A DNA stretch of 64,000 nt from Escherichia phage LHE83. How positions within the stretch are numbered: position 1 is the stretch's first letter; each line of letters opens with the position of its first letter. Below the pieces are notes generated by a model, which saw only the letters and a list, made by a program, of their open reading frames with translations, was not told where the DNA came from and did no database searches. The DNA lies in the sequence record OQ561750; one strand, given 5' to 3'. A program made the translations under genes and the position numbers. Positions 286-52,712 of the stretch are shown one piece after another.

Positions 286-786
286 ATGAAAAAGTTAATT
301 ATCGCAATGAGTATGCTCCTATCAGGTTGCGCGGTCCAATATGGTGATACAGTTTCGGCTGATGAAGTTGGTAAAGCTCGTATCGCAGCTGAACAGAAAC
401 AATTCGATGGCGAAATGAAATTCCGTGCAGGTTCTGGACTTGTGTACACCCGAGCTAATAATCAATGCGGTAATAACTGTGCAAAATATGCTCAACAAGA
501 AATCGAATTCCAACGTGAACAAGAGTCCAAGCGTGAAGCGGTACTAGCCAAACACCAGGCAGAAATGAAGCGTCAAGATGATTTGTACAAAAAGCAGAAA
601 CTGTATGCGATGTGCGTAAACCATATCAATCTACAGATTTCCATCCACGAGGCTCGTTATTACGAAATGCTCGAAACCGAGAGCTTCGGTAAAGCTCGTG
701 ATTATAAGAAACAAATCGATAAGCTCAAGACCAAAGCACCGGCGGCAATAGAACAGTGTATTGAAATCGGTAAAGATAAGATTTAA
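286..786 (+). CDS. predicted lipoprotein, unknown function
   Basis: Signal peptide with lipobox LLSGC; SD GAGGA 6 nt upstream of ATG. Confidence 0.6.
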   Translation: MKKLIIAMSMLLSGCAVQYGDTVSADEVGKARIAAEQKQFDGEMKFRAGSGLVYTRANNQCGNNCAKYAQQEIEFQREQESKREAVLAKHQAEMKRQDDLYKKQKLYAMCVNHINLQISIHEARYYEMLETESFGKARDYKKQIDKLKTKAPAAIEQCIEIGKDKI

Positions 787-846: not shown

Positions 847-2520
847 ATGAAAAAGGTTGTTATTTTAGGCGCGGGTCTTGGCTCACGGTTGTATCCAATT
901 ACCAACGAAATCCCGAAGGTACTGGTTAACTACAAACAACATACTGTATTAAAACATTTGTATGATTTGTATAGTAATCAATCAGATGAAATTATTCTGG
1001 TTATTCACAGCAAATTTAACGACCTCGTTAAAGGCTATATTAAATCCATTAACATGATTAATAGTGATAAGCCTAAATTCACTATTCGTAACGTTGATGT
1101 TGCCAATGGTTCGGCTCATGCTATCGATTGCATTGCCGAAGATATCATTGGGCACAATGTCTTGTTTAACTGGTGTGATATTATTCCTGAAGGTCATAAA
1201 GTTGAGTGGGATAACGACTACTGTTATACCTATGGGACCGACTGTCGTTTTACATTTGAAGAACCGTACTTGCGTGAAATTGGTACCGGTGGTGGCGTAG
1301 TTGGCTTGTATCAGGTGGCTAATTGGACAGGTTTCGACCGTTCTAATTATGGTGAAGACCTTGCTGACAACCTGGATTCAATGGTCCATTTGACTGAACG
1401 TAAGTTAGACTTTGTAGTTGATGTTGGTGACAAACTGAAACTGGCTAAGGCCCATGAAGATTCTGAAATTAACCGTGAATTTAATAAATTAGAGTTCACT
1501 GAGAATCTAGCTATTAAAGTACCTACAAACGAATTAGGTAAAGAAATCCAATCTAAAGAAATCAATTGGTACAATTCTATTGATTCTGAATTCGTTCCTA
1601 GCATTGTAGACTTTGCTCCAGGTGAATTCATTAAAATGGAACGTATCTTTGGTCGAACCATGGCAGATGCCTACCGGTTTATGTCTAAAGAAACTAAAGT
1701 CCTAATGGTTTATAAGGTTATTAGTGCATTACGTTCGTTCGGTGGAACTATCGATAATCCGTCCGATGAGCAATGGTATTCTGATGTTAAGAAAGAAGTA
1801 TTGGACAAGGTCCTTATTCGTAATGCTTCTATTGCCGGATTGATTGAAGGCTTTGCTCCACAGGGTATTACCCATGTTAACGACTTCAAGGTAGGCGACC
1901 CAGAAAAACTTCTTCGTCACGCCTTAGAAATTCTGTCTGAACATAAAGAACCGTACCAACTTATTCATGGCGACCCGCACTACAGTAATATTATGTTGTC
2001 GGACGAAGGTAATATTAAAATCATCGACCCACGTGGTTATTTTGGTAATAGTTCTAAAGGCCCTGCGATTTATGATGAAGCTAAGGTGCTTTATTCTATC
2101 GATGGTTATGACAAATTTAACTCTGACCCTCTATGGGGTGGCTTAACTCGTAACGGAACTCGTGTATTCGTTGATATTGAAAAGGTTATGCCTTTAGATG
2201 ATATTCCGATGTGTACATTTAAGCACAAGCTCTGGATTGCCGTTATTTGGATGGCATTGGCAGGTTACTTTAAAAATAACCCTCTGAAAGCTCTGGGCGC
2301 TTATTACAATGGGCTATATCAACTGAGTGTGCTGCTGAAGCGGCATCCTCGTAAGCGTAAGCTTATCACAGGTGAATTCGTTGATGAAGTTCGCGACCCT
2401 ATCACGGCTCAAATTATCACTCGTTGTCCTGATAAGTGGGTTTTGCTTGACCAGGAAACTGGTGTAAAATATAAACCTACAGGTTCTACCGAACTCCACA
2501 AACAATGGAAGAAAATTTAA
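847..2520 (+). CDS. bifunctional sugar-1-phosphate nucleotidyltransferase / APH-like (anomeric sugar or choline-type) kinase
   Basis: N-terminal glycine-rich loop GAGLGSRLYPIT typical of GlmU/RmlA/MurU/LicC-type nucleotidyltransferases; C-terminal HGDPHYSNIM...IIDPRGY kinase motifs (APH/ChoK fold); start chosen at 847 (SD GAGGA), ORF-track start 817 lies inside the TATAAT. Confidence 0.75.
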   Translation: MKKVVILGAGLGSRLYPITNEIPKVLVNYKQHTVLKHLYDLYSNQSDEIILVIHSKFNDLVKGYIKSINMINSDKPKFTIRNVDVANGSAHAIDCIAEDIIGHNVLFNWCDIIPEGHKVEWDNDYCYTYGTDCRFTFEEPYLREIGTGGGVVGLYQVANWTGFDRSNYGEDLADNLDSMVHLTERKLDFVVDVGDKLKLAKAHEDSEINREFNKLEFTENLAIKVPTNELGKEIQSKEINWYNSIDSEFVPSIVDFAPGEFIKMERIFGRTMADAYRFMSKETKVLMVYKVISALRSFGGTIDNPSDEQWYSDVKKEVLDKVLIRNASIAGLIEGFAPQGITHVNDFKVGDPEKLLRHALEILSEHKEPYQLIHGDPHYSNIMLSDEGNIKIIDPRGYFGNSSKGPAIYDEAKVLYSIDGYDKFNSDPLWGGLTRNGTRVFVDIEKVMPLDDIPMCTFKHKLWIAVIWMALAGYFKNNPLKALGAYYNGLYQLSVLLKRHPRKRKLITGEFVDEVRDPITAQIITRCPDKWVLLDQETGVKYKPTGSTELHKQWKKI

Positions 2521-2879
2521 TGCATCTGTGTTTTGATATCGATAATACCATTACTCACTGGCAAGATGACCGTGATTACGAAAACTTTAAACCGGACACC
2601 GAAATGGTGTCCATGATTAATAAGCTTTATGATGAAGGGTACGAGATTACCTTGTTCACTGCCCGTGGTATGACTTCATGCGGCCCGGGTCGAATCTTGG
2701 TTGAAGTAGTTCCTGCATTAGTTAAGAACCTTGAAAAGATTGGATTGAAATATCACAATCTGCTTACACATAAGCCGAGTTATACTTTTATCATCGATGA
2801 CCGAGCAATCCGTCCTGACCACTTTAAAGAAATGGTTCGTGAAGGAACTCTTGAAACCTATAAGGCATATCATCCGTGA
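2520..2879 (+). CDS. HAD-superfamily phosphatase (small, capless type)
   Basis: Motif I FDIDNTIT near N-terminus, downstream T/K/DD motifs; TAATG overlap with previous gene (alternative start 2505). Confidence 0.7.
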   Translation: MHLCFDIDNTITHWQDDRDYENFKPDTEMVSMINKLYDEGYEITLFTARGMTSCGPGRILVEVVPALVKNLEKIGLKYHNLLTHKPSYTFIIDDRAIRPDHFKEMVREGTLETYKAYHP

Positions 2880-3412
2880 AACCAAAAATCATTGTTATCG
2901 ACGGCCCGGATAATTCCGGGAAGTCTACTTTAATTGAATCACTTTTATCTGATAAGAAATATCGTCTTATTGATTTCCCTAAAAAGATTAATGGCAAATG
3001 CATTTCATTAGGGACCGATAATGACAAGGCTTTAGTCGAGACGTTGTATAAGTTTTTAGACCCTAATTTCGTTTACATCCTTGACCGTGGTTATCCAAGT
3101 AATATTGTTTACTCGGGATTCCTTCGCGGTGAAATGGACCCTTATGTAGAACTGGAAGATTGGAAAAGGTTTAAATCTGAATTCAATATTATTGAGGTTA
3201 TTTTAACCCGTAATCCACTGGATAAAGACTTTGAAGATGACCTTATTAAATTAACCAAAGATGAGTTCAACCTAACTATCCGGCAATATGAAACATGTTT
3301 TGAAAACGTGTTTAAAATCTTAAATCACGACGGCCATAATAACTTGCTTAACGTCGATATGGTAGAATTAAAACGTCTGAATGAATATATTGAAAATAAG
3401 GTGAATAAATGA
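2876..3412 (+). CDS. thymidylate-kinase-like P-loop nucleotide kinase
   Basis: Walker A IVIDGPDNSGKST and DRGYPSNIVYSG resembling Tmk P-loop and DRxxxS..AYQG motifs; GTG start overlapping upstream stop (GTGA). Confidence 0.65.
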   Translation: MKPKIIVIDGPDNSGKSTLIESLLSDKKYRLIDFPKKINGKCISLGTDNDKALVETLYKFLDPNFVYILDRGYPSNIVYSGFLRGEMDPYVELEDWKRFKSEFNIIEVILTRNPLDKDFEDDLIKLTKDEFNLTIRQYETCFENVFKILNHDGHNNLLNVDMVELKRLNEYIENKVNK

Positions 3413-4107
3413 AACACATTACCGCTGTTAGTTTTGAAAACGCGTTTAAGCAAATGAACGAAGAAATCCTGGAAGCTCCACAGTTTGCAGTTGATTCTCG
3501 TATCGGCCGTTGTTATGAAATTGGTTCTGCTTCGGTAGAAGTACTGGATGCAAGCACCTATAAATTCACCGACCCTCGTATTAATCGTATCAACTATGAT
3601 TATGCCGAATCTTTCTGGAAGTTTATGATTTCTGGTGGTACTGACGCCGCCGAAGCATTTAAGGAATACCCTAATGTTGCTAAGTTCATTGATAAGCCGA
3701 AAAGTGACGTATTGCCTGCAAACTTCAACACTTTCTATGGACCTAGAATTGTGGCCCAACTCCCAGCCTTACTTAAAGAGCTTAAAGAGAAGCCTAACTC
3801 AAGACGAGTTGTGTTCCAAATTCTCCAAGAACAAGACCAAGCCCTCCTTGATTCTGACGAATCCTTAGAATATCCATGTACTGATTCAGTGACATATTAT
3901 ATTCGTGATGGACGTCTTTATGCACATACCCATATGCGTTCACAGAACTGTGCTATTGTTATGCAGCTGGATTTCTATCTGCAGGGTAAACTGATGGCCT
4001 TTATTGCTGAACAGTGTGGTGTTGGTCTGGGTACGTATTCCCATACTATGGTTAGTGCACACGTATTTGAACGTGATTTTGACTACGTTCGAGGATTCCT
4101 GAAATGA
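3409..4107 (+). CDS. thymidylate-synthase-fold enzyme, dCMP hydroxymethylase-like (divergent gene 42 homologue)
   Basis: SRRVVF, catalytic Cys in EYPCTD, HMRSQN and Asp (QLDFY) at the position of the TS specificity Asn as in T4 dCMP hydroxymethylase; only distant similarity to T4 gp42 by eye; ATGA overlap with upstream gene. Confidence 0.75.
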   Translation: MKHITAVSFENAFKQMNEEILEAPQFAVDSRIGRCYEIGSASVEVLDASTYKFTDPRINRINYDYAESFWKFMISGGTDAAEAFKEYPNVAKFIDKPKSDVLPANFNTFYGPRIVAQLPALLKELKEKPNSRRVVFQILQEQDQALLDSDESLEYPCTDSVTYYIRDGRLYAHTHMRSQNCAIVMQLDFYLQGKLMAFIAEQCGVGLGTYSHTMVSAHVFERDFDYVRGFLK

Positions 4108-4997
4108 GTTTGTTTATCGTTCCTATTTTCAGTATGCGTAGTTACGAAACAGGTGAATATGCCGTCCTTAAGGACGGTAATTTTCAACTCCATTTAAACC
4201 GTGCTTGCCCAGGTGATTATCTGGCTTATCCTAGAAATTCGAGCGATATCAAAGAATGCATTGAATTATTTCCTGAACTGAATTTTGTACCTCTTTGGTA
4301 TAAAGAAAATGCTTATGAAACTCGTAAACATTTTTGGTCTGAAAATGAGTTCGTTGTTGATTCGTTAATCGAATACTATGACTGCTCAGGATTGGTAACC
4401 GATATCACAGGTTATGATGGTGCTCATACCGTACAATTCAACTTTAACATTACAATGGACCCTGAAGTTCCTCGTTATTACATCGATGAGTTTATTGATA
4501 CCGACGTGGGTTCAGTTGAACGTTCGATTTATACCACAGTCCTGAATCAATGCCAGAAAGACGTCCTGGTGTCACGAGGTGCGTCCTCTGATAAGATTTT
4601 TGTAGACCAAAAGGTAATTAATCCGGCAGTAATTGAGCGTTACTCTGAAGGCCTAGCGCCTATTAAAATTGATGGTATTTTCCATCCATTCCGTATCTCT
4701 GATAAATGTTATCAATTCGAAAGAGTTGTAGACCAAGCTGCGGCTGAAGGTTCTCGCCTTTATATCACCGATCCGAATGATTCATTTAAGCGTGAAGACT
4801 ATCGTCCTGATGTAGAGATTATTAAATTCAAACCGAGTAAGGTTGAATATTATCAGATTCTGAAATCAAGACCTCATATCATTTATCATGAGAATCCCAG
4901 TTTAGTATTTCATCCTGGTCTAGCTGAATTCATTTATTTCGGTGCCCATATCCATTCTGAGCACGAAATGCCAAGTTATGAGGACGTGGTCCTTTAA
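4104..4997 (+). CDS. hypothetical protein at the beta-gt position (candidate DNA-modifying transferase)
   Basis: 297-aa ORF, ATGA-coupled to the 42-like gene and immediately upstream of uvsX; no motif recognised. Confidence 0.5.
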   Translation: MSLFIVPIFSMRSYETGEYAVLKDGNFQLHLNRACPGDYLAYPRNSSDIKECIELFPELNFVPLWYKENAYETRKHFWSENEFVVDSLIEYYDCSGLVTDITGYDGAHTVQFNFNITMDPEVPRYYIDEFIDTDVGSVERSIYTTVLNQCQKDVLVSRGASSDKIFVDQKVINPAVIERYSEGLAPIKIDGIFHPFRISDKCYQFERVVDQAAAEGSRLYITDPNDSFKREDYRPDVEIIKFKPSKVEYYQILKSRPHIIYHENPSLVFHPGLAEFIYFGAHIHSEHEMPSYEDVVL

Positions 4998-11306: not shown

Positions 11307-11828
11307 ATGGCACACTTTAACGAATGCTCACAACTTATTGCTGGTGTTGATAAAGCTGAGGAAGCTTATTTTAATGCTCTGATTCACGAAGATAAAGACC
11401 CTCTGCAGGTTATGCTTGATATGCAGAAATCATTACAGGTCCGTTTGGCTAAAGATAAACCTGAATATAACCGTCATCCTGATGACTTGGCTACTGCAGG
11501 TGAAGTTGTTGATTGGTTGCGCAATCAGAAAGATTATATTGATGATGAATTCCGCGAACTTCTGACTTCTCTTGGTGGCATGAGCAATGGCGAAAAAGAT
11601 GCGAGCGCTGTATGGAAGCCTTGGAAAGCTCAACATGCTGAACGTCGTGAAACCCTGATTAACGATTTGTCTCCTGAAGACCAGCTCGAAATTAAATTCG
11701 AAATGATTGATATTCTGCACTTTGTTCTGAATATGTTCCAAGGTCTTGGACTGACTGCTGAAGAAATCTTTAAACTGTATTACCTGAAAAATGCCGAGAA
11801 CTTTGCTCGCCAGGACCGAGGTTATTAA
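11307..11828 (+). CDS. 56: dCTPase/dUTPase (MazG-like) gp56
   Basis: Size, position and similarity to T4 gp56 by recollection. Confidence 0.8.
   Translation: MAHFNECSQLIAGVDKAEEAYFNALIHEDKDPLQVMLDMQKSLQVRLAKDKPEYNRHPDDLATAGEVVDWLRNQKDYIDDEFRELLTSLGGMSNGEKDASAVWKPWKAQHAERRETLINDLSPEDQLEIKFEMIDILHFVLNMFQGLGLTAEEIFKLYYLKNAENFARQDRGY

Positions 11829-51029: not shown

Positions 51030-52712
<1,683 letters not shown>

Follow-up and report, generated by a model that had tools for sequence, protein, structure and literature searches.

What the fusion of a nucleotidyltransferase with a small-molecule kinase makes in Escherichia phage LHE83, and whether its product is destined for the phage DNA, is the question raised by a gene near the beginning of sequence record OQ561750. 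The window, by which we mean the whole 64,000-nucleotide stretch that was analysed, belongs to a Dhakavirus of the QL01/WG01/Bp7 type, and QL01 is a 99%-identical phage with a complete genome. The original prediction held that this gene supplies an activated sugar or alcohol for DNA decoration. The gene probably encodes a Dhakavirus orthologue of AfhE, a bifunctional enzyme in the pathway by which phages arabinosylate cytosine, and from its homology and setting the predicted product is most likely UDP-arabinose for attachment to the cytosines of the phage DNA. The gene, its domains and the signals in front of it are arranged as follows.

811 to 839, + strand: upstream signals read from the sequence, TGTATAAT (811-818, extended -10-like) and GAGGA (835-839)
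847 to 2520, + strand: bifunctional nucleotidyltransferase-kinase gene, AfhE homologue, 557 aa, stop codon at 2518-2520
847 to 1452, + strand: N-terminal sugar-1-phosphate nucleotidyltransferase domain (aa 1-202), with GAGLGSR (aa 8-14), K24, D111 and D195/K198
1453 to 2340, + strand: APH/choline-kinase-fold small-molecule kinase domain (aa 203-498), with K224, E238, HGDPHYSN (aa 374-381) and IDPRG (aa 393-397)
2341 to 2517, + strand: C-terminal tail of about 58 aa, beta-rich with short strands (pLDDT 70-86)

The open frame around the gene spans positions 817-2520 of the + strand and offers two ATG codons. ATG 847 is the likely start of the 557-aa protein: it is preceded at a distance of 7 nt by a Shine-Dalgarno sequence (GAGGA, 835-839), it is where the QL01 and WG01 proteins, both 100% identical, begin according to their annotation, and all 40 aligned homologues share the corresponding N-terminus. 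ATG 817 was rejected, as it lacks a Shine-Dalgarno sequence, overlaps a TATAAT-like element and lies upstream of the point where homologues and annotations begin. Further upstream, TGTATAAT (811-818) may tentatively be read as a promoter. A consensus scan did not list this site because its -35 element is weak, and the matches of that scan were no more numerous than in shuffled sequence.

One polypeptide combines an N-terminal nucleotidyltransferase fold with a C-terminal APH/choline-kinase-like kinase fold. NTP_transferase (PF00483) is matched at aa 3-100 (E 2.4e-8, 34.3 bits, cutoff 21.2) and APH (PF01636) at aa 346-417 (E 8.8e-6, 26.1 bits, cutoff 23.2), while phrog_4098 matches the whole protein (E 5e-269). 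The nucleotidyltransferase signature LGAGLGSRLYPITNEIPK lies at nt 865-918, and the predicted Brenner motif HGDxxxxN and DxxG are present as HGDPHYSN and IDPRG within nt 1966-2037. Judged on these matches and motifs, the two-domain signal is far beyond chance. Among 40 homologues reaching down to 30% identity, G10, R14, K24, K224, E238, H374, G375, D376, N381 and D394 are invariant, and the protein retains about 60 invariant residues of this alignment, all catalytic ones included. The structural matches of the nucleotidyltransferase half are RmlA, MurU (4y7t, TM 0.69 on target), HddC and VTC1 in Foldseek, and HddC and LicC in profile searches of the PDB. The closest kinase folds of the C-terminal half are maltokinase, MTR kinase, NahK and choline kinase; sequence and profile searches of the PDB gave no match for this half. 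A sequence search of the PDB returned distant nucleotidyltransferases and no solved structure of the AfhE type. The C-terminal tail follows the consensus TKxPxKWxLxDxETGxxYxP, which is kept in the Straboviridae copies and missing from distant homologues, and the latter span just 85-90% of the 557-aa query.

The original prediction regarded such an enzyme as unexpected in a T-even phage. However, 367 phage records, most of them from Straboviridae, contain a full-length homologue, and the family was flagged in 2018 and characterised in 2025-26. In Thomas et al. (2018), the RB69 copy and a JS98-like copy (IME08) already appear as proposed UDP-arabinose genes, and a fusion protein of Butyrivibrio proteoclasticus is noted. 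AfhE of Escherichia phage HY126 is a bifunctional D-arabinose-5-phosphate kinase/UDP-D-arabinose pyrophosphorylase (He et al., Nat Chem Biol 2026, as summarised in PMC13326640). According to the account of He et al. given in Lee et al. (2026), AfhE phosphorylates Araf5P to Araf1,5P, which is then dephosphorylated by AfhF, a Mg-dependent phosphatase; both the kinase-first order and the UTP specificity are taken here from that summary. Lee et al. (2026) furthermore equate RB69 gp52:53 (ORF53_52c) and DLP3 gp82 with AfhE, and UDP-Araf serves as the in vitro donor for DLP3 gp76+gp77. The 557-aa protein aligns from end to end (aa 1-557 vs 1-562) with the 562-aa protein of HY126 at 43% identity (E 7e-144), and it is 41-44% identical to RB69 gp52:53. 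From its architecture, its position and the description in Lee et al. (2026), we infer that this HY126 ORF, XAN60479.1, is AfhE. Identities of 44-47% connect the LHE83 protein to homologues of Serratia phage 92A1, Shewanella phage Thanatos-1 and DLP3-like Acinetobacter phages, which reportedly contain arabinosylated 5-hydroxycytosine.

Within the family, the Dhakavirus, Marfavirus and Providencia phage copies form a separate branch, 43-49% identical to all other copies, while the copies outside this branch are 48-72% identical to one another. A scan for active-site changes found 13 clade-specific changes at otherwise conserved positions, most of them conservative. Non-conservative changes are E85V near the nucleotide-binding loop and N378H inside the catalytic loop, and furthermore N150G and A226P.

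The setting of the gene gives the second line of evidence. Immediately downstream lie four further genes of one cluster, and a fifth gene relevant to the pathway is found at a distance.

2505 to 2879, + strand: HAD-family phosphatase, homologue of AfhF and RB69 gp51, with a DIDNT motif I, 62% identical to a 128-aa protein of HY126
2876 to 3412, + strand: P-loop nucleotide kinase, homologue of RB69 gp45, with a Walker A sequence GPDNSGKST
3409 to 4107, + strand: thymidylate-synthase-fold homologue of 5-hydroxy-dCMP synthase, 79% identical to RB69 gp48 and 9iqu
4104 to 4997, + strand: homologue of the first DNA arabinosyltransferase (RB69 gp46:47), 67% identical to a 299-aa protein of HY126
11307 to 11828, + strand: gp56-type dCTPase, 173 aa, collinear with QL01 gp027, which is annotated as gp56 dCTPase

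The cluster of five genes sits between gp43 (DNA polymerase) and uvsX, as in RB69 and HY126, and its genes overlap start to stop, which is consistent with co-translation as far as the gene boundaries indicate. The HAD gene begins at ATG 2505 or ATG 2520, both of which overlap the stop codon of the upstream gene. Its product is also 62% identical to RB69 gp51, and it matches the capsule-biosynthesis phosphatase model TIGR01689 at 1.6e-14, under the model cutoff. The P-loop kinase gene, joined by a GTGA start/stop overlap, encodes a protein that is 37% identical to RB69 gp45, matches the thymidylate kinase family phrog_761 at 9e-40 and is presumably the 5-hydroxy-dCMP kinase. The transferase homologue is 64-70% identical to RB69 gp46 and gp47 and belongs to phrog_3891; it has no Pfam match, and the glycosyltransferase assignment of the RB69 gp46:47 type comes from Lee et al. 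(2026, Table 1). The coordinates of the dCTPase gene in the window and in QL01 were linked via a common weak match, and from its context this enzyme is predicted to clear dCTP so that cytosine is fully replaced.

The thymidylate-synthase-fold neighbour had been described as hydroxymethylase-like, a description that is to be revised to a homologue of 5-hydroxy-dCMP synthase. A dCMP hydroxymethylase of the T4 gp42 type was rejected for this gene, since gp42 is only remotely similar (E 4.7e-6, vs 1.5e-125 to PDB 9iqu/9iqc) and the residue at ThyA position 169 is Asn, not Asp. Besides this diagnostic Asn169, shared with RB69 gp48, the protein carries Cys146 and Asp177 (ThyA numbering), in an alignment with ThyA and gp42 reference sequences and with RB69 gp48 and 9iqu as given in their records. 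The 9iqu protein, like RB69 gp48 an experimentally verified 5-hydroxy-dCMP synthase, is 100% identical to that of HY126, and the 5-hydroxy-dCMP synthase activity of RB69 gp48 has been demonstrated (Lee et al. 2026).

Database annotation of this block is wrong or empty, with the names 'hypothetical protein', 'GlmU', 'phosphoheptose isomerase' and 'thymidylate synthase/dCMP hydroxymethylase'. The name 'phosphoheptose isomerase', which the HAD protein draws from phrog_1238, does not suit its fold.

With its two folds, end-to-end homology to the HY126, RB69 and DLP3 proteins, intact catalytic residues and conserved linkage to pathway genes, the LHE83 protein has the features of the AfhE type. What its cluster lacks is a phage-encoded arabinose-5-phosphate isomerase, a trait of the HY126, RB69 and DLP3 clusters rather than of the enzyme itself. 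A tblastn search with the isomerase RB69 gp55 gave no match across the 64-kb window and the complete QL01 genome, and the isomerase is likewise missing from the polymerase-uvsX cluster of the Marfavirus and Providencia phage relatives. A U32-like protein, gp49 and a second glycosyltransferase (RB69 gp3) were also found neither in the window nor in the complete QL01 genome. The Dhakavirus cluster is the smallest in the comparison, with five genes, one transferase and no isomerase. Lee et al. (2026) nevertheless include Dhakaviruses and Marfaviruses among the genera with a syntenic cluster in their synteny figure. On Dhakavirus DNA modification itself the searchable literature gave only genomic inferences, and no chemical analysis was found.

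The pathway that we propose begins with the APH-fold domain, which would transfer a phosphate from ATP to the anomeric hydroxyl of D-arabinofuranose 5-phosphate, yielding arabinose 1,5-bisphosphate. The HAD phosphatase, whose gene follows downstream with an overlap, would then take off the 5-phosphate, and the retention of this phosphatase argues that the sugar bisphosphate intermediate has been kept. The MurU/RmlA-like domain would join the resulting arabinofuranose 1-phosphate with UTP to give UDP-D-arabinofuranose, from which the sole glycosyltransferase (4104-4997) is expected to move arabinose onto 5-hydroxycytosine of the phage DNA. Three enzymes would bring this base into the DNA: the dCTPase, the 5-hydroxy-dCMP synthase encoded at 3409-4107 and the P-loop kinase encoded at 2876-3412. 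Since no phage arabinose-5-phosphate isomerase was found, the starting sugar phosphate is presumed to be made by the host, with KdsD or GutQ as its source. In E. coli, KdsD is a source of arabinose 5-phosphate for Kdo synthesis. GutQ activity likewise makes arabinose 5-phosphate in this host (cited in Thomas et al. 2018). By analogy, the activities described in the literature and the use of UDP-Araf as donor should hold for the 43%-identical Dhakavirus copy, and the minimal cluster would predict mono-arabinosyl-5-hydroxycytosine made from host arabinose 5-phosphate.

Seen against known systems, the LHE83 protein resembles HY126 AfhE, RB69 gp52:53 and DLP3 gp82 in domain order, in length (557 aa vs 562 aa in HY126) and in its catalytic motifs. 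The AfhE systems occupy the same polymerase-uvsX slot with the same partners, namely the HAD phosphatase, the synthase, the first arabinosyltransferase and the P-loop kinase. However, in LHE83 the kinase gene precedes the synthase and glycosyltransferase genes instead of following them, in addition to the four missing genes and the separate branch of the protein. The AmgK-MurU, LicA-LicC and NahK-type pairs, to which the original prediction had likened the enzyme, are separate proteins that process a free sugar or alcohol in two steps, whereas the two activities are fused here and sequence identity to those proteins is only 8-20%. Their folds do recur in the LHE83 protein, but the free substrate and the two-step scheme probably do not carry over. 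According to the pathway published for the AfhE type, the kinase substrate is arabinose 5-phosphate, already phosphorylated at C5, and a separate HAD phosphatase is obligatory between the kinase and nucleotidyltransferase reactions, therefore giving three steps rather than two. The core of that proposal, an NDP-sugar donor for DNA decoration, is retained on the strength of homology and pathway neighbours, and arabinose was among the candidate substrates named.

T4, with gp42, alpha- and beta-glucosyltransferases and host UDP-glucose, shares the neighbourhood and the principle that an enzyme of the thymidylate synthase family modifies dCMP before a transferase adds a sugar to the DNA. In contrast to T4, which has no donor-synthesis genes since the host supplies UDP-glucose, the donor would here be made by the phage, the base would be 5-hydroxycytosine instead of 5-hydroxymethylcytosine, and the sugar would be an ether-linked pentose. 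More distant relatives combine four domains in one chain: the metagenomic proteins P0068, P0074 and P0093 fuse HAD, SIS (GutQ-type isomerase), nucleotidyltransferase and homologous kinase domains, and their nucleotidyltransferase-kinase module is 31-32% identical to the LHE83 protein over 89% of the query. Together with the Butyrivibrio proteoclasticus fusion, they combine the homologous module with isomerase and phosphatase, but lie beside glycan-type glycosyltransferases and not beside nucleotide-metabolism genes. On a jumbo-phage-like contig, a SIS gene is located directly upstream of a homologue. The HAD-SIS-nucleotidyltransferase-kinase fusions provide independent 'Rosetta stone' support for a pathway of the AfhE type.

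The order of the steps could differ from the one proposed above, with the phosphatase acting first to give free D-arabinose, which the kinase would phosphorylate at C1 before UDP-arabinose is formed, in a salvage route of the AmgK-MurU/NahK style. The nearest folds of the kinase half, from maltokinase to choline kinase, speak for this order. The substrates of maltokinase, MTR kinase, NahK and choline kinase are mostly unphosphorylated. In addition, Table 1 of Lee et al. (2026) gives this very order, stating that RB69 gp51 and DLP3 gp81 'dephosphorylates Araf5p to Ara' and that the kinase domains 'phosphorylates Ara to Araf1p'. However, in its running text that paper cites the biochemistry of He et al. 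and places the AfhE kinase before AfhF, at least as summarised there, and the invariant basic residues K321, R325, R396 and K413 would suit a phosphorylated substrate. A phosphatase-first route is held to be unlikely. A change of substrate in the Dhaka/Marfa/Providencia branch, toward another host pentose or sugar phosphate or another NTP and ending in a 5-hydroxycytosine glycoside other than that of arabinose, appears quite unlikely. The depth of the branch, at 43-49% identity to every arabinose-linked copy, would fit such drift, as would the four non-conservative changes (E85V, N150G, A226P, N378H), the lack of a phage isomerase across the window, the entire QL01 genome and the polymerase-uvsX cluster of the Marfavirus and Providencia phage, and the occurrence of hexoses on 5-hydroxycytosine in other viruses (Lee et al. 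2026). The LHE83 protein is also the most diverged member of its cluster, at 43% identity vs 62-79% for its neighbours. Nevertheless, the donor-recognising glycosyltransferase (67%) and the phosphatase (62%) remain close to their HY126 counterparts, the invariant residues persist, with every catalytic position among them, and many of the clade-specific states are the commonest residue in more distant homologues. Even among the arabinose-linked copies identity is only 48-58%, and the arabinose 5-phosphate needed for Kdo synthesis is made by hosts such as E. coli. If a switch of substrate had occurred, it would represent a new DNA hypermodification by a retuned AfhE scaffold.

It is very improbable that the NDP-sugar serves a target other than DNA, such as host envelope glycans or virion proteins, and that the nucleotide-metabolism neighbourhood is incidental. 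Such a role would be in line with the multi-domain glycan-type glycosyltransferases that adjoin distant homologues, the four-domain fusion included, and with the resemblance of the HAD protein to a capsule-biosynthesis phosphatase family. Against it, the gene is co-oriented and overlapped with those of the synthase, the nucleotide kinase and the DNA arabinosyltransferase homologue, and experiments link the corresponding block of RB69, DLP3 and HY126 to arabinosylated DNA. In some records homologues go under the names 'bifunctional protein GlmU', 'guanylyltransferase' or 'mannose-1-phosphate guanyltransferase', but an enzyme of the GlmU or mannose-1-phosphate guanylyltransferase type is hardly conceivable here. 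The GlmU model NCBIfam TIGR01173 scores 21.8 bits vs a cutoff of 366.85, over aa 3-101 only, and the C-terminal half has a kinase fold instead of a left-handed beta-helix acetyltransferase. GlmU, mannose-1-phosphate guanylyltransferase and plain RmlA were all rejected on such grounds, with matches limited to the first 100-200 residues or so and far under the family cutoffs, the C-terminal half being a kinase.

Taken as an AfhE orthologue, the gene belongs to an enzyme family and a pathway that the literature already describes for RB69, DLP3, HY126 and other phages, and for Dhakaviruses by synteny; the window adds no new principle. Being the smallest of its kind, the Dhakavirus cluster is a convenient minimal system for reconstitution, and it predicts a reliance on the isomerases of the host Kdo pathway. 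Since 2010 it has been known that JS98-type coliphages have a 'gene 42' homologue but no glucosyltransferase. The gene bears on DNA protection in these phages, which serve phage-therapy work: JS98-type phages would make their own UDP-arabinose and place arabinose on 5-hydroxycytosine. Many restriction enzymes and CRISPR nucleases are blocked by this modification.

The gene at 847-2520 on the plus strand encodes a genuine nucleotidyltransferase-kinase fusion, which belongs to an enzyme family and a pathway known from earlier publications. The 557-aa product carries two Pfam domains that both exceed the gathering score, NTP_transferase at aa 3-100 (E 2.4e-8) and APH at aa 346-417 (E 8.8e-6). Nucleotides 865-918 encode the motif LGAGLGSRLYPITNEIPK, and nt 1966-2037 encode HGDPHYSN followed by IDPRG. 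In an alignment of 40 homologues extending down to 30% identity, residues G10, R14, K24, D111, D195, K198, K224, E238, H374, G375, D376, N381 and D394 are invariant, and the AlphaFold2 model built from this alignment is confident (pLDDT 92.0, pTM 0.87). Foldseek searches against the PDB matched the N-terminal ~200 residues to RmlA, MurU (TM 0.69 on target), HddC, inositol-phosphate cytidylyltransferase and GDP-mannose pyrophosphorylase, and the C-terminal half to APH(2'')-IIIa. Kinases resembling this half are glucosamine kinase and maltokinase (15.3 each), choline kinases including LicA (14.6-15.0), aminoglycoside kinases (about 14), methylthioribose kinase (13.7-13.8) and NahK (12.1). Three of these (maltokinase, methylthioribose kinase and NahK) place the phosphate on the anomeric hydroxyl, which is the chemistry required ahead of nucleotidyltransferase action. 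Taken together, the Pfam, motif and fold results confirm in all particulars the original prediction's observation of a GlmU/RmlA/MurU-type N-terminus joined to a C-terminal APH-fold kinase, with both halves adopting the respective folds. The C-terminal tail (window 2341-2517, aa 499-557, ~58 residues) is beta-rich, its short strands being modelled at lower confidence. Its consensus, TKxPxKWxLxDxETGxxYxP, is kept only in Straboviridae copies, and more distant homologues are without the tail.

The fusion lies in a single plus-strand ORF at 817-2520. Translation almost certainly begins at ATG 847, because GAGGA is located 7 nt upstream, the QL01 and WG01 records annotate identical proteins from this codon and every sequence in the homologue alignment starts at this position. 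An extended -10-like element, TGTATAAT, is found at 811-818, 29 nt 5' of the start codon, with a poor -35. This may be a dedicated early promoter of the five-gene block; a consensus promoter scan did not report the element.

Over its first 6 kb the window shares 99% identity with Dhakavirus genomes, among them QL01, WG01, Bp7, E33 and PSD9. Genes follow one another as imm, the lipoprotein-like ORF (166 aa), the fusion, the HAD protein (124 aa), the P-loop kinase (178 aa), the thymidylate-synthase homologue (232 aa) and a 297-aa protein, and then uvsX, gp40 and gp41. The five genes at 847-4997 overlap stop-to-start, first through TAATG or an upstream ATG and next through GTGA, ATGA and ATGA. 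Two genes outside this block are:

286-786, plus strand: 166-aa ORF (phrog_1754) with a lipoprotein-type signal, MKKLIIAMSMLLSGC
51855-52712, plus strand: canonical td-like thymidylate synthase, 285 aa (weak cross-match; QL01 gp236)

The 166-aa ORF sits between imm and the modification cluster, approximately in the slot of the Mosigvirus arabinose-5-phosphate isomerase, and could be a superinfection-exclusion type lipoprotein. Given the td-like gene, the phage has a normal Td in addition to the 5-hydroxy-dCMP synthase paralogue. Public annotation of the block at 2505-4997 is misleading in the window and in the records of relatives: the HAD phosphatase is named 'phosphoheptose isomerase', the synthase homologue 'thymidylate synthase' or 'dCMP hydroxymethylase' and the transferase 'hypothetical', with the fusion itself listed as 'hypothetical protein', 'GlmU' or 'guanylyltransferase'.

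The fusion had been regarded as unexpected in a T-even phage, a view that the earlier descriptions of the family overturn (Thomas et al. 2018; Lee et al. 2026). RB69 ORF053c and ORF052c were recognized as a single 561-aa gene with RmlA-like and kinase-like halves in its product, and IME08 gp43, from a JS98-like phage, was named among the homologues. A bacterial fusion protein tied this gene to a GutQ-type isomerase, and UDP-arabinose synthesis was proposed as its role (Thomas et al. 2018). RB69 and DLP3 DNA contains mono-, di- or tri-arabinosylated 5-hydroxycytosine, with 5-hydroxy-dCMP produced by a thymidylate-synthase homologue, and a syntenic cluster occurs in genera including Dhakaviruses and Marfaviruses (Lee et al. 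2026). Citing He et al., the text of that study has the HY126 enzyme AfhE phosphorylating arabinofuranose 5-phosphate to the 1,5-bisphosphate before AfhF dephosphorylates it, but its Table 1 places the phosphatase ahead of the kinase.

PDB 9iqu is 100% identical to the HY126 thymidylate-synthase homologue, making the HY126 locus (PP658200) retrievable for comparison. Its order is polymerase, isomerase, small ORF, 562-aa protein, 128-aa HAD, U32-like protein, small ORF, synthase, 299-aa transferase, P-loop kinase and uvsX. The fusion matches the 562-aa protein over its full length (43% identity, E 7e-144). Identities to the HY126/RB69 counterparts are 62% for the HAD protein and 67% for the 297-aa protein (transferase), and the P-loop kinase is 37% identical to RB69 gp45. 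The neighbouring gene had been called hydroxymethylase-like, a label that is wrong: its product is 79% identical to 9iqu and RB69 gp48, with T4 gp42 a remote match only (E 4.7e-6). In an alignment with ThyA and T4 gp42, for which the RB69 and 9iqu sequences were taken from records, it has Asn where E. coli ThyA has Asp169, a replacement diagnostic of 5-hydroxy-dCMP synthases (Lee et al. 2026).

Independent support for the link to arabinose 5-phosphate comes from homologues. Three of the 190 database homologues (P0068, P0074 and P0093; 922-946 aa) combine HAD, SIS (GutQ-type isomerase), nucleotidyltransferase and kinase domains in one chain, placing the entire donor pathway within one polypeptide. 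The P0068 gene, on an AT-rich contig (L009 8001-10775), adjoins a 1164-aa multi-glycosyltransferase (GT11/GT2/GT25), which suggests that the same donor pathway serves glycans outside DNA modification. On a 315-kb phage-like contig (L008 7297-11359), a SIS-domain gene lies directly upstream of the fusion homologue; a Fpg/Nei-type DNA glycosylase gene is found ~800 bp downstream, near UvrD-like helicase and gyrase/topoisomerase IV genes. Furthermore, the window protein is 44-47% identical to homologues of Serratia 92A1, Shewanella Thanatos-1 and DLP3-like Acinetobacter phages, in which arabinosyl-5-hydroxycytosine has been reported. The predicted role in making a donor for DNA decoration would hold in outline, with arabinose among the substrates originally proposed, but not the two-step route from the free sugar.

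The Dhakavirus cluster is reduced. No homologues of RB69 gp55 (isomerase), gp50 (U32-like), gp49 or gp3 (second arabinosyltransferase) were found in the window or in the complete QL01 genome, and a Klebsiella Marfavirus and a Providencia phage have no isomerase in the pol-uvsX cluster. U32 'peptidase'-like genes occur in the arabinosylation clusters of Mosigviruses and Marfaviruses (L002 6493-7662, RB69 gp50; L012 5543-6703; L010 8675-9835). Marfavirus retains the gene and Dhakavirus has lost it. In bacteria, U32-family proteins have been linked to C5-hydroxylation of rRNA/tRNA pyrimidines, making its presence beside a separate 5-hydroxy-dCMP synthase curious. It has been guessed only to be a 'sugar or heterocycle reductase' (Lee et al. 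2026).

The Dhakavirus, Marfavirus and Providencia-phage fusions form their own deep branch (847-2520 against homologues P0002 and P0003 in alignment A1; loci L010 and L011). Members are 72-81% identical to each other and 43-49% identical to all other Straboviridae copies, which share 48-72% with one another. Of the positions with conservation of at least 90% elsewhere, only 13 differ consistently in this branch. Most changes are conservative, the exceptions being E85V, N150G, A226P, C326N, N378H (within the HGDxxxxN loop) and F456C; altered sugar or nucleotide specificity is unlikely. The bisphosphate route has probably been kept, since the phosphatase gene is conserved and overlapping.

Like the cluster of the mono-arabinosylated Thanatos, that of Dhakavirus has one transferase, and the phage would make mono-arabinosyl-5-hydroxycytosine. 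Arabinose 5-phosphate would be supplied by host isomerases, of which KdsD yields this compound; the activity of host GutQ has also been cited (Thomas et al. 2018).
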